Source: a virus
Taxonomy: Duplodnaviria > Heunggongvirae > Uroviricota > Caudoviricetes
Length of the DNA stretch: 22,164 nt
IMG/VR virus record: IMGVR_UViG_2657245091_000012
Reading direction: 5' to 3' (one strand)
In this document: positions 1 to 22,164 of the stretch, piece after piece
How the letters are laid out: the number at the start of each line of letters is the position of its first letter
How positions within the stretch are numbered: position 1 is the stretch's first letter
The notes under the pieces: model-generated
Told to the model about the DNA's origin: nothing
What the model saw: the letters and a program-made list of their open reading frames with translations, nothing else
The model's database searches: none
Position numbers and translations under genes: made by a program

Positions 1-256
1 CGTCGTTTTTAATCGACTCGACGTACTCGATATCTTCTTTTACCGGGTTAGTGTCGTCGAAACGCAGGTTGCACTGGCCTTTATAGTCCTGGGCGATCCC
101 GAAGTTCAGGCAGATAGATTTCGCATGACCAATATGCAGATAGCCATTCGGTTCCGGCGGGAAACGGGTATGTACTGTGGTGTGCTTACCACTGGCCAGA
201 TCTTCATCGATGATCTGACGAATAAAGTTAGTCGGGCGGGCTTCTGCCTCACTCAT
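1..256 (-). CDS. glnS: glutaminyl-tRNA synthetase, 5' portion (about 85 N-terminal codons; gene continues past the left edge)
   Basis: Reverse-complement translation from the ATG at 254-256 reads [85 protein letters not shown], which I recognise as the enterobacterial GlnRS N-terminus including the class I HIGH motif. Not in the ORF track because it runs off the window edge. Confidence 0.9.
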
Positions 257-448
257 TGTGGATTCCTCAAAGCGTAAACAACGTATAACAGCGTATGATC
301 TTATAAGCCGAATAGGCTGACAACCACTAGTTGATTAGAAATTGCTTTCTATCGTTATTTCAATAATGAGCTTTTTCATGAAGCCCACTTTTGCGCATAA
401 GTAAATTAATGACAAATGGTACACAATTGGAACCAAAAAGGATGTAAA

Positions 449-480
449 GGTGCACCAAATTAGTGGTGTATTGGTGCACC
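449..480. other. perfect 10-bp inverted repeat GGTGCACCAA / TTGGTGCACC with 12-nt spacer, inside a longer imperfect palindrome (about 429-489); candidate bidirectional terminator and/or partition-protein binding site
   Basis: Direct reading: 449-458 ggtgcaccaa and 471-480 ttggtgcacc are exact reverse complements; flanked by ggaaccaaa (429-437) and tttggttca (481-489); T-rich runs on both sides; lies about 45 nt downstream of the parG-like stop. Confidence 0.4.
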
Positions 481-524
481 TTTGGTTCAAGACTTTTTAA
501 GTTCTAAAACCAACCTGAAAGACT

Positions 525-812
525 TTATTTTGCTTCCTCAGACTCCGCTAACATGAGGATAGCATGGCGGATCATATTCAATTTGCTGCGATTATGCTTT
601 TTACTTAACGCATCAAGTACTTGGTACTCGTATTCATTGAAACCAACACGAATAGATTTAAAATCACGTGGAGCGTCCTTATCGAGCACTTTGTTGTCTT
701 CTGGTTGCTCACCCGGCACCAAATCAGCCTTACTGGCAAAATCCTCAATTCGGCGTTCAAGATCGGGGTCTTTTACTTCGGGGGCTTTTACCGATTTACG
801 AGGCTTAATCAC
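525..812 (-). CDS. parG: small partition protein, ParG-like (ribbon-helix-helix centromere-binding protein); GTG start
   Basis: 95-aa ORF directly downstream of and overlapping the ParA-like gene by 8 nt; basic N-terminus and C-terminal RHH-like segment (RVGFNEYEYQVLDALSKKHNRSKLNMIRHAI) resembling TP228 ParG; AGGAG about 7 nt upstream of the GTG. Confidence 0.65.
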   Translation of the reverse strand: MIKPRKSVKAPEVKDPDLERRIEDFASKADLVPGEQPEDNKVLDKDAPRDFKSIRVGFNEYEYQVLDALSKKHNRSKLNMIRHAILMLAESEEAK

Positions 813-1446
813 TTAATAACTCCTTAACCAACATCTGGATTTCACCTTTAGCTTTCCCGTTGTCCATCTCAACAACGCCCTTCCCTTCAGCCATGCAATC
901 GCGGTAAACCTTACGATCACGAATGATGGTTTTCAGCAACTTCAGTTGCGGATATTCAGCCAAGTACTCTTTGGCCTCATTGGTTTCATTCACAACCGGA
1001 TTGGATGGGGCCATTGTTAAGACTGCGAACGCCTTAATGCTAGGATTAGGCATCAGGTCCAAAGCCTCTTCAAACACTTCAACAAAGTGTGCCAGCGTGT
1101 CTAAATCTGGTTGAGATGGTCTGAATGGGACCAACACAATATCTGCAGCGGTTATGCCTGTACGCATCTCTTTGCTATCGCGCCCGGCTGTATCAACAAC
1201 TACAAATTCATAACGCTTATCCAGATCGAGAAGTGTTTCTCGAATATTACCAAACTTCTGGACACAATGAATTACAGGAGAAACCTCTGCCGTGTTACGG
1301 TCAGCTGCCCAGCGGGCAGCTGTTCCTTGCTTGTCTGCATCTAGTAACACTACATCCTTATTTGCGCGGGCAAGCTCCGCACAGATGTTTACGCTTGTGG
1401 TTGATTTTCCACAGCCACCTTTTTGGCTGACTACCAATATAATCAT
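805..1446 (-). CDS. parA: ParA/ParF-like small Walker-type partition ATPase (type Ib)
   Basis: Deviant Walker A KGGCGKST near the N-terminus, overall size (about 213 aa) and layout like ParF/Soj. The track's start at 1476 is a TTG; the ATG at 1444-1446 (MIILVVSQKGG...) with GAGGAA upstream is more plausible. Confidence 0.85.
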   Translation of the reverse strand: MIILVVSQKGGCGKSTTSVNICAELARANKDVVLLDADKQGTAARWAADRNTAEVSPVIHCVQKFGNIRETLLDLDKRYEFVVVDTAGRDSKEMRTGITAADIVLVPFRPSQPDLDTLAHFVEVFEEALDLMPNPSIKAFAVLTMAPSNPVVNETNEAKEYLAEYPQLKLLKTIIRDRKVYRDCMAEGKGVVEMDNGKAKGEIQMLVKELLSD

Positions 1447-1690
1447 ATCCGTTCCTCGGTGTGATTTTGGTATCAAAACGGTTCCAGATAAGAGCCTTTT
1501 TGATGCGGGACAGGCTCTATAATGGAGTCATTAATGTTTGGCAAAGTATAACATCAATCAGACCAAATACACCTTATATTGCATCCTATTTAACACGAAA
1601 TCAGCCCAAAATTGGAACCAGATACAAAATAACCCCATAACAGCACCTAAGTGGTACCAAACAAACACTAATTAGACACCATTAAGGCAT

Positions 1691-1713
1691 AAAAAAGGCT
1701 GCAATTTGCAGCC
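1691..1713 (-). terminator. rho-independent terminator downstream of parR (7-bp GC-rich stem ggctgca/tgcagcc, 3-nt loop, followed on the minus strand by a T6 run)
   Basis: Plus strand reads aaaaaa-ggctgca-att-tgcagcc; on the minus strand the hairpin is followed by TTTTTT; sits about 20 nt past the parR stop. Confidence 0.55.
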
Positions 1714-1733
1714 TTAAACCAGCACATCTTCTG

Positions 1734-2072
1734 TCAATCAGGTAGAGAGTCAGCTAGATTGCGCGCCGACGCGCTTTTGGCTACAAATTGCTCCTTCACT
1801 GGCTCAATGGAGGCAGGGCGCTCCTCAACCGCAGCTGGTAGTTCCAGGAAGGATGCCAGCATTTTTCGGATCAGCTCCGGGTTATTGTCTTCGGTCAGCA
1901 GGGAAGCCAGTAATCCTGGAAGCCTGCTATCGACTTCTCCCAGCGCAAGCCCTGCCAACAATGCAGTTCTTGCCATATCGCTATGTTTTTTTATCTTCTC
2001 GCTCGCCGCCTTTTCATTGGCATAAGCCTCTGGGCGAAGATAAATCATCACTTTCTTACGTTCCTGAGACAT
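1734..2072 (-). CDS. parR: ParR-like centromere-binding adaptor of a type II (ParMRC) partition system
   Basis: Segment ALLAGLALGEVDSRLPGLLASLLTEDNNPELIRKMLASFLE parallels R1 ParR as I recall it; immediately downstream of parM; start probably the second ATG (2072), which has GAGG at good spacing. Confidence 0.7.
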   Translation of the reverse strand: MSQERKKVMIYLRPEAYANEKAASEKIKKHSDMARTALLAGLALGEVDSRLPGLLASLLTEDNNPELIRKMLASFLELPAAVEERPASIEPVKEQFVAKSASARNLADSLPD

Positions 2073-2084
2073 GGACATACCTCG

Positions 2085-3041
2085 TTAACCGATTGCTTTC
2101 AGGCCATGAACAAGAGCAAGTTGCGGGTCATCCGCCACGAAGAAACGGTCATCACGAATATTAACTTGCACGCGAATTGCATCTGCCACCAGCGGTGCGC
2201 CACCACCGATCACCATGACATGCGTATATCCTTTAAAGTCGCCAATCACATCAAGAACGCGGGTACGCAGACGGTCAATGCTTGCGGCAATGGCCTTTTT
2301 CACATCACCAATCGCTGATGGGTCATTGATATTGTCGTTCAGATAATCTTCATCGTGGCGGTTAATAATGAGCTGATCCACATTGTAATTTGACGTTTCG
2401 GTATTGGCCCTTGCAAGTGCTTGCCTTACTTCCCTGGTGACCAAGGATACACCAAGATTCGAATCGCCAAAAACACGGGAAACTGCCGTCATTTGTCCAG
2501 CGACCATTGAAACATCAAGGGTAGTTCCACCCAAATCGACGATAAGAACAGAGTGGGCAGGGTTCAGATTGTCGCACAGGCTAATTCCCGCCGGGATAGA
2601 CTCCGGGCGTACCGTAACTTTCTTAATAGTGAATACATTGCCTTTATTCAGCGTGACGGGGCGCATAAGACTGGCTTTCTTGCGCTCGATGTTATCGAGA
2701 TTGTATTGCGCGTCGTCGTCGTAAAACTCTGCCAGAGGCAGCGTGACCACAATTTCTACTTCCTGCGGCTCAATACCGCTTGTCAGCAGGGCATGGTGAA
2801 CAGCCAGGACGTTAAGCGGGCTGTATTGCCATTCCACATTATTCGTCGGCAGAACATCTGGCGATATCAAGTCGTATGAATACTTTTCGTCGTCAATGAC
2901 ATAGTTAAACGGCTTGCCCGCACCAAATGTTGCTGACCATCCGCGCTTAAAGCTGTTAGGGCTGATGTGAGTGCGAGTTTCCCCGTCGTGCTCCCACAGC
3001 ATTTTGATATTGGTTGAACCATCATCGATAAAAATGCGCAT
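2085..3041 (-). CDS. parM: ParM actin-like partition ATPase (StbA/ParM family)
   Basis: N-terminus MRIFIDDGSTNIKMLW, then ISPNSFKRGW, VHHALLTSG, ESIPAG, LIVDLGGTTLDVS, GDSNLGVSLV and YTHVMVIGGGA closely parallel R1 ParM. The track start at 3065 is a GTG; the ATG at 3041 with upstream GGAG matches the ParM N-terminus. Confidence 0.9.
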   Translation of the reverse strand: MRIFIDDGSTNIKMLWEHDGETRTHISPNSFKRGWSATFGAGKPFNYVIDDEKYSYDLISPDVLPTNNVEWQYSPLNVLAVHHALLTSGIEPQEVEIVVTLPLAEFYDDDAQYNLDNIERKKASLMRPVTLNKGNVFTIKKVTVRPESIPAGISLCDNLNPAHSVLIVDLGGTTLDVSMVAGQMTAVSRVFGDSNLGVSLVTREVRQALARANTETSNYNVDQLIINRHDEDYLNDNINDPSAIGDVKKAIAASIDRLRTRVLDVIGDFKGYTHVMVIGGGAPLVADAIRVQVNIRDDRFFVADDPQLALVHGLKAIG

Positions 3042-21162: not shown

Positions 21163-21827
21163 ATGAAAGATAATTGGCTTAAGGAACGATTAACTAAAGT
21201 AAAACAGGATTCACATCTCTGGAGTGCCTTTATCGACGCTTTACAGGATGTCTGGAATGAGGCAGTAGAACCAATATTAACAAGAATAAGTAACAGAAAA
21301 TCCTTCTTCACTATGGACAGTGAGGATATGGATGCCCGCATTGCTGAATACGGGCGTTTTTTCGTCATCACTGAAAAAGATAAGGCTCGTAGGCCAATGC
21401 TACTGGCACAACGTTTAGATGAAGTGCACTTTAAAGGCACTATCTTGCCTATTGAGCAGACATTCTGGCGTGAATTCGGTTGTATTCCTGTTAGCTGGGA
21501 ACCGCTGTATGCACCTGTAAATATAGAAAAACACCCCTATGGTTCATATTTTGCGACCGAAATAGAAATACCTACGGCACAGGCTCAATTCGGTGAGTTC
21601 TTCCTGACATCAAGGGGGCTGGTCGTTGTTGATCAGAACAAGCTATATCGCTCATATGGAGAGCAGGATAAAGAAGCCGCTGTGCAGAAATTGTTATCTG
21701 ACTTCGAAACAGTAATAGCCCCTTTGTTGCCATTGCATATTGTTTTTGATGGCGTCTCGTTTCGGCTTAGTGCTGTATTCCCTGAAGTGGCAGAAATACT
21801 AAATTGCTTGTCTACGGATGTTTCGGT
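21163..21827 (+). pseudogene. structural-block gene truncated at its 3' end by an IS3-family insertion
   Basis: The ORF (ATG 21163, SD gaggttgg) reads without a stop into the IS terminal repeat; its last 16 codons ([16 protein letters not shown]) are encoded by IS sequence. Confidence 0.5.
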
Positions 21828-22164
21828 TGAACCGCCCCGGAAATCCTGGAGACTAAACTCCCTGAGAAAGAGGTAAACAGGATGACTAAAAATACTCGTT
21901 TTTCCCCCGAAGTCCGTCAGCGGGCGATTCGTATGGTTCTGGAAAGTCAGGATGAATATGACTCACAGTGGGCGGCAATTTGTTCCATTGCCCCAAAGAT
22001 TGGCTGTACGCCGGAGACTCTGCGTGTCTGGGTTCGCCAGCATGAGCGGGATACCGGGAGTGGTGATGGTGGACTCACCACCGCTGAACGTCAGCGTCTG
22101 AAAGAGCTGGAACGTGAAAATCGTGAACTGCGCCGCAGTAACGATATCCTTCGCCAGGCTTCCG
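21828..22164 (+). mobile_element. IS3-family insertion sequence, left end (IS629/IS1203-like by recollection); continues past the right edge
   Basis: Terminal repeat beginning TGAACCGCCCCGG at 21828, followed by SD and the orfA start; OrfA N-terminus is typical of IS3-family IS629-type elements. Confidence 0.8.
21882..22164 (+). CDS. IS3-family transposase OrfA (helix-turn-helix and leucine-zipper part), partial at the right edge
   Basis: Translation [94 protein letters not shown] is recognisable as IS3-family OrfA. Confidence 0.85.

Follow-up and report, generated by a model that had tools for sequence, protein, structure and literature searches.

A complete glnS gene, the 5' end of which lies at the left edge of the window (the whole stretch of DNA analysed, 22,164 nt), was captured long ago from an Escherichia chromosome by an ancestor of the D6 phage lineage; we assign this structural and evolutionary explanation a probability of roughly 0.93. 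The ancestor copied 75-87 bp of the promoter region together with the whole coding sequence to about the stop codon, and the copied piece lies in the short spacer between the parA/orf61 operon and the convergent dam gene. On this low-copy phage-plasmid glnS would probably be transcribed from its own Dam-sensitive promoter, and a lysogen or a replicating phage could gain a second, element-controlled supply of GlnRS. Its function may then be one of dosage or insurance, as for the tRNA genes that these phages carry as well, and would involve no new specificity. The neighbourhood of glnS looks odd, and a sequence-only reading of the window had taken it for non-native, but it is the documented normal architecture of the D6 phage-plasmid family (orf60-orf63 in D6). 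As this order is normal for the family, no follow-up of a misassembly or an integration is needed. The features of the window are collected in Table 1.

Table 1. Features of the window, with strand and supporting evidence (a dot marks features without strand)
Feature	Position	Strand	Evidence
Start of glnS, codons 1-85, with the HIGH motif	1..256	-	translation, Pfam
Native glnS upstream region, captured with the gene	257..344	-	alignment to chromosomes
71 nt between chromosomal homology and backbone-like spacer	345..415	.	no match to fetched chromosomes or empty-site spacer
Phage-plasmid backbone spacer downstream of orf61	416..524	.	similarity to orf61-dam spacer
ParG-like D6 orf61 homologue, 95 aa	525..812	-	phrog_9169 8.5e-62
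ParA-type ATPase, 213 aa, D6 orf60 homologue	805..1446	-	Pfam AAA_31, CbiA, MipZ above cut-off
Candidate operator/centromere upstream of parA, with three copies of TTGGWAYCA	1447..1733	.	motif count
StbB (D6 orf59)	1734..2078	-	Pfam Plasmid_stab_B 3.4e-11
ParM/StbA (D6 orf58)	2085..3041	-	Pfam StbA_N 8.9e-70, ParM_N 1.7e-54
Left end of IS629	~21827..22164	+	98.8% identical to IS629 in Stx phages

Judged by its sequence, the window belongs to a P1-related phage-plasmid of the D6 type. A phage search aligned positions 1-21827 in a single collinear piece, at 98.5% nucleotide identity, with phage D6, a relative of P1 that is maintained as a plasmid in its lysogens. An assignment to the SSU5/pHCM2 type of phage-plasmid was dropped, as the phage search pointed to a D6-like element. 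The same positions matched ~80 plasmids of ~90 kb from E. coli, Salmonella and Shigella at 98-99% identity and pYU39_89 (NZ_CP011430.1) at 98.6%, and the full window matched NZ_CP031917.1, a 95-kb plasmid of E. coli O45:H2 FWSEC0003, at 99.8% identity. Maintenance genes (ParA, ParG-like, StbA/ParM and StbB, recognised with Pfam and PHROGs) and virion genes are combined in one replicon, and the annotations under the window matches include a RepB-family initiator as well as capsid, sheath and baseplate genes. The GenBank record of D6 lists, in this order, orf58 (StbA), orf59 (StbB), orf60 (ParA-like), orf61, orf62 (annotated as "glutaminyl-tRNA synthetase, similar to E. coli GlnS") and orf63 (dam, a convergent gene for a Dam-family methylase). 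The same gene order is found in the RefSeq annotation of the relatives, where glnS encodes 553 aa. The relatives are extrachromosomal: of 5426 complete E. coli genomes, 94 had the par locus (window 345-1700), on a plasmid in every case (chromosomal copies, 0 of 94). Among the matches listed, the carrier plasmids measured ~76-216 kb, mostly 88-98 kb, and the complete circular relatives with the same junction measured 88-96 kb.

An IS at the other end of the window, also part of the sequence-only reading, is real. IS629 contributes its left end as the final 340 bases of the window, and homology to D6 stops at 21827. IS629 truncates a P1 gene-16-like tail/baseplate gene (window 21163-22164), the ORF of which ends in the window at 21876, inside the IS; in D6, orf37 is 846 nt long and extends 181 nt beyond the insertion point. 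Because of this truncation, the prophage copy may be virion-defective. NZ_CP031917.1 alone shared the insertion among the matches listed.

On the other side of the glnS spacer lie the partition genes. The 95-aa ORF at 525-812 had no Pfam match, and its residues 53-94 weakly matched an Arc-like ribbon-helix-helix profile (E = 1.8e-4); this homologue of orf61 is possibly a small ParG-like partner of ParA with a ribbon-helix-helix fold. It is overlapped for 8 nt by the end of parA, which encodes a short ATPase of the Walker type (213 aa) that lacks an N-terminal DNA-binding domain, a feature of type Ib (ParF/ParG-like) partition systems (PHROG ParA-like, 2.3e-56; NCBIfam ParA_partition, 162.6 bits, below the cut-off of 180). 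Of the two Pfam families matched by StbA, ParM_N is described by Pfam as a C-terminal domain. The motif TTGGWAYCA was counted four times in the window (at 427, 1467, 1612 and 1652) against an expected 0.97, with 4 of 100 shuffles reaching the observed count, and all four copies flank the parA-orf61 operon, between 427 and 1660 (the copy at 427-435 reads TTGGAACCA). A perfect 13-bp inverted repeat is located at 446-458 / 471-483 (RNA fold z = -3.8). The motif copies and this repeat are candidates for a centromere or for binding sites of the ParG-like protein. Read on the minus strand, the hairpin at 446-483 lacks the form of a canonical intrinsic terminator, and transcription may for this reason read through from the par operon into glnS.

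The GlnRS N-terminus that the sequence-only reading had placed on the minus strand, as apparently intact, was borne out. Positions 256..1 form a stop-free frame of 85 codons that runs off the window edge, contains the HIGH motif and matches Pfam tRNA-synt_1c (E = 4.4e-28; 98.5 bits with a cut-off of 23.4), and GlnRS residues 1-85 of the window are identical to those of E. coli K-12. The distance of about 270 bp to the ParA/ParG-like module was accurate as well, since the spacer 257-524 is 268 bp long and is followed by the genes at 525-812 and 805-1446. The window itself holds just these 85 codons; for the source contig we infer a full-length glnS from the relatives. In D6, p88_19539-2 and others the same ORF encodes 553 aa (translations were checked), and the GlnRS of D6 scored 1067.9 bits on TIGR00440 (cut-off 425.8), covering profile positions 1-524 of 524. 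Besides D6, the junction with glnS was present in 75 complete E. coli genomes and 97 PLSDB plasmids; beyond it, about 100 sequenced relatives and D6 itself continue into full-length glnS and then dam, so that the gene after glnS in complete relatives is the phage dam and not chiP. The earlier suggestion that the element had captured a fragment of glnS therefore holds for the capture but not for the fragment: the relatives carry the complete gene with what appears to be its own promoter.

Two database records show broken frames in this region. NZ_CP031917.1 (L002 1226-9523), the nearest record, marks glnS, parA, rdgC and several neighbours as frameshifted; these are probably sequencing errors in the assembly rather than decay, because parA is intact in the window. 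In pSa1423-90k (L091 495-4369) we counted 136 gap openings over 4 kb in comparison with D6, and the glnS frame breaks at codon 8. This record is most likely an error-rich sequence, and the reading of its glnS as a pseudogene was set aside.

To map the junctions, the D6 locus and the window were aligned to the nagE-glnS-chiP region of K-12. Homology to K-12 was limited to a piece that starts 87 nt before the ATG and ends 7 nt before the K-12 stop codon (L004 4007-5751). In the window, chromosomal homology covers positions 1-344, which comprise the coding part and 75-87 bp of native promoter sequence. The upstream breakpoint is at 344/345 when compared to K-12 and at ~332 (75 nt before the ATG) when compared to other lineages. 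The captured upstream region is 88.5% identical to K-12 (L004 4007-4092), and its proximal 75 nt are ~91% identical to other E. coli, E. ruysiae and Citrobacter. In the alignment to K-12, neither nagE nor its terminator has a counterpart in the element, and the distal 115 bp of the intergenic DNA and the sequence natively downstream of glnS are missing as well. An alignment to the nagE-glnS intergenic region, which had been proposed as a way to locate the breakpoint, thus did locate it but reached no nagE end. As for the gene order on enterobacterial chromosomes, nagE does lie upstream of glnS in K-12, CV261 and NA3664, but not in CFT073 (L094 1-468), which has a DeoR/GlpR-family regulator there instead and IS200C downstream. 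The site upstream of chromosomal glnS is variable in itself, since the chromosomes resemble one another there only over the ~75 nt that precede the ATG.

The 71 nt at 345-415, which separate the part of chromosomal origin from the backbone-like spacer, matched none of the fetched chromosomes and not the empty-site spacer described below; the E. fergusonii plasmid has a diverged counterpart. No direct or inverted repeat of at least 8 nt flanks the glnS cassette. At the 3' end, GlnRS terminates in ...AKVGE-stop in the chromosome, in ...AKVEG-stop in the E. fergusonii plasmid and in ...AKLG-stop in the D6 clade, and because the E. fergusonii plasmid still has ...AKVEG where the D6 clade has ...AKLG, the capture ended at about the stop codon. 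Downstream of glnS, a hairpin with a T-run lies just past the end of the convergent dam, in the position where a shared terminator would be.

Relatives without glnS show the empty site. The E. coli plasmid pEC361_3 and the E. marmotae plasmid pRHBSTW-00605_3 have the same par locus and replicon cluster without glnS, and the gap between orf61 and dam is 135 bp in both (L006 2454-2588; L007 2455-2589). NZ_LR890273.1 and NZ_CP069647.1 are further glnS-less relatives. The par locus of the glnS-less relatives is 84-98% identical (98% in pEC361_3, 93% in the E. marmotae plasmid), while the dam genes of these two plasmids are only 71-78% identical, with the break exactly at the orf61 stop codon. This difference between the par locus and dam indicates that the backbone is mosaic at the orf61 stop. 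Window 416-524 is locally similar to the 135-bp empty-site spacer, with a score reached by 0 of 500 shuffles; the right-hand junction (the hairpin after dam) taken alone was not significantly similar to the empty site. GGTTCC and GTGTACC-like elements persist in the spacer of the glnS-less relatives. The glnS junction was present in 75 complete E. coli genomes and the par locus in 94, and ~19 of the 94 par-locus plasmids lack glnS. We read glnS as a one-gene insertion into the orf61-dam spacer, probably by illegitimate recombination; no signature of transposition was seen.

Within the captured region lie a Shine-Dalgarno sequence and, at 323->295, the promoter-like site TTGTCA-17-GATCAT, both hexamers of which are unchanged from the chromosome. 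A Dam site (GATC, 297-300) is located inside the -10-like hexamer and is retained as in K-12. According to PMC11741368, which cites Plumbridge and Soll 1987, promoter-located Dam sites account for Dam repression of E. coli glnS. With a GATC in its -10-like hexamer, the element's glnS may well be expressed in a Dam-sensitive manner, and expression could increase whenever methylation lags behind replication. In dam mutants, E. coli glnS is reportedly derepressed, and in D6-like elements a gene for a Dam-family methylase follows glnS (L005 6636-7541). The GATC within the captured hexamer and the adjacent phage dam gene may represent a regulatory link.

We then compared the coding sequences. The phage-plasmid copy is 96.8% identical to chromosomal glnS of K-12, and the encoded GlnRS is ~99% identical to the host enzyme. 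Between D6 and K-12, dS was 0.12, dN 0.0039 and dN/dS 0.033, a divergence of the same order as that between E. coli phylogroups. Among the phage-plasmid copies (D6, p13ZX36-90, pTB423 and the E. fergusonii plasmid), dS reached 0.22-0.23 with dN/dS ~0.02, and the frame was intact in each of the four. The intact frames and the dN/dS of ~0.02-0.03 indicate that the enzyme has been kept functional while the element diverged. Indirectly, the same dN/dS of 0.02-0.03 and the ~99% identity to E. coli GlnRS support the view that the plasmid GlnRS charges tRNA-Gln. Substitutions in GlnRS are few and conservative (2-5 differences from the host enzyme). I112V is present in 5 of 5 phage-plasmid alleles, in 0 of 5 Escherichia chromosomal alleles and not in the Salmonella allele; only the D6 clade has V97I, Q106K and the C-terminal change.

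The glnS of D6 is a mosaic. Over nt 1-363 it follows pTB423 at 20 of 21 informative sites, and over nt 366-1662 it follows K-12 at 63 of 79, with the last five sites, at the 3' junction, following pTB423 (uncorrected Fisher p = 2e-10 for the contrast). In its first 450 nt, D6 is ~5% distant from every E. coli, which equals the distance between E. ruysiae and K-12. The simplest reading is gene conversion with chromosomal glnS in which internal tracts were exchanged. With five alleles the direction is ambiguous: E. coli may have converted D6, or a different donor may have converted pTB423. The chromosomes in the contig scan were those of E. ruysiae, Salmonella, Citrobacter and others, with none of E. 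albertii, E. fergusonii or E. marmotae among the matches listed.

Several other origins of the junction have to be weighed against capture. One is that the phage-plasmid is integrated or co-integrated beside chromosomal glnS, as the sequence-only reading had considered. glnS is normally a chromosomal gene, a stretch of ~1.7 kb with 96-97% identity between its plasmid and chromosomal copies could support homologous co-integration, and the mosaic alleles show that recombination between the two does occur. However, chromosomal homology ends 87 nt before the ATG and again at the stop codon, nagE and chiP are absent (glnS is followed by dam), complete circular relatives contain the junction, and the par locus was on none of the chromosomes of the 5426 E. 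coli genomes; we give integration practically no credence. The chance that the contig is chimeric, with chromosomal glnS and plasmid reads misassembled, is equally negligible in our view. A glnS repeat at 96-97% identity can confuse assemblers, but the junction recurs in independent complete genomes, including D6 and many long-read assemblies, and the promoter and 5' coding part in the window carry phage-plasmid-specific substitutions, by which its glnS allele is not the chromosomal one. It is also extremely unlikely that an IS such as IS629 mobilised glnS as part of a composite transposon. The IS at 21827-22164 and the 71 nt at 345-415 that match nothing at the upstream junction would fit such an event, and an IS-mediated integration had been suspected from the IS at the far end. 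The IS is 21.5 kb away, though, and D6 and most relatives share the junction without IS629 there; the identical junction in D6 leaves IS629 uninvolved. In addition, the cassette consists of exactly one gene, with no flanking repeat of at least 8 nt and no transposase remnant.

The physiological role is less settled than the origin, and the main alternative to a dosage or insurance gene is plasmid addiction, in which the plasmid glnS would take over from the chromosomal copy and plasmid loss would become costly. We consider this unlikely, yet clearly worth retaining. A precedent exists in cysS on pBT1 of Salmonella Typhimurium D23580, where the plasmid gene is essential and its chromosomal counterpart down-regulated (PMC6333337, PMC6785131), and PMC6799933 puts the D6-like glnS forward for the same role. 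Moreover, glnS adjoins two partition systems, purifying selection on it is strong, and an unrelated conjugative plasmid of Citrobacter carries cysS and glnS together. On the other hand, chromosomal glnS is retained in essentially all complete E. coli genomes, carriers of the plasmid copy included (5428 chromosomal places in 5425 genomes), and about one in five of the related plasmids lacks glnS. A role in supporting translation fits with the tRNA genes that D6-like genomes also carry, according to PMC6799933. Taken together, a dosage or insurance role would have a modest edge over addiction. Its benefit is not obvious given the 99% identity to the host enzyme.

A plasmid GlnRS of this kind might also be an inhibitor- or toxin-resistant variant or one of altered specificity. 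Second copies of aminoacyl-tRNA synthetases on plasmids are a classic route to resistance, as with the plasmid-borne mupA/IleRS, and I112V is common to all five phage-plasmid alleles and to none of the chromosomal ones compared. Nevertheless, the 2-5 differences from host GlnRS are conservative, dN is 0.004, and much of the D6 allele seems to have been overwritten by ordinary E. coli sequence, which would be surprising for a special variant that needed to be kept; we judge this reading very unlikely. A broader idea, which we regard as speculative and improbable as a whole, is that the D6-lineage glnS, rather than being a passive passenger, is an essential gene duplicated under Dam-sensitive control of the element, which makes the host dependent on the phage-plasmid or raises translation while it replicates, and which could shuttle alleles among Escherichia and Salmonella chromosomes via repeated gene conversion. 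The junction map, the empty sites, the selection estimates and the mosaic alleles provide handles on dosage versus addiction versus allele exchange.

Finally, we compared the locus with known systems. The window and D6 (MF356679 / NC_050154) are alike in element type, in the gene order stbA-stbB-parA-orf61-glnS-dam and in the junction; they differ in that the window copy has IS629 in the P1 gene-16-like tail gene, which D6 does not, and in that the window spans just the first 85 codons of glnS. The window glnS is the same feature as orf62 of D6 and glnS of pYU39_89 and is already known. PMC6799933 (2019) states that glnS was found in every D6-like genome examined, calls it a moron and credits the D6 genome paper (Gilcrease and Casjens 2018) with the earlier observation. 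The moron is described there for plasmid prophages of the D6 type in Salmonella Typhimurium ST213, pYU39_89 among them. The glnS-less relatives that share the par locus, which go unmentioned in that paper, were found in the present analysis, and because about a fifth of the par-locus plasmids lack glnS, its statement on all D6-like genomes has to be qualified. The passages of it considered here contain no junction map, selection measure or recombination test, whereas the present work supplies all three. What is added to the literature is the junction coordinates, the empty-site relatives, the purifying selection, the evidence for recombination and the retained Dam site near the phage dam.

Beyond the D6 family, cysS of pBT1 is likewise a complete gene for an essential aminoacyl-tRNA synthetase that resides on a plasmid beside a chromosomal copy, and the D6-like plasmids carry a whole synthetase gene too, a glnS of 553 aa. 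The amino acid, the kind of plasmid and the origin differ between the two. Measurements showed pBT1 cysS to be essential and its enzyme to have altered properties, whereas the D6-like glnS is known from sequence and its product is ~99% identical to the host enzyme. In Citrobacter cronae, the conjugative plasmid p.S175-1.4 (MOBP/MPF_I; L008 3331-7155) carries cysS and a full-length, Citrobacter-like glnS ~300 bp apart, beside a higBA pair. As this is an independent capture on a different plasmid type, capture of aminoacyl-tRNA synthetase genes by plasmids recurs. Near-identical essential translation genes are thus a recurrent cargo of mobile elements, with glnS on D6, cysS on pBT1 and the cysS and glnS pair in Citrobacter as the instances compared here.
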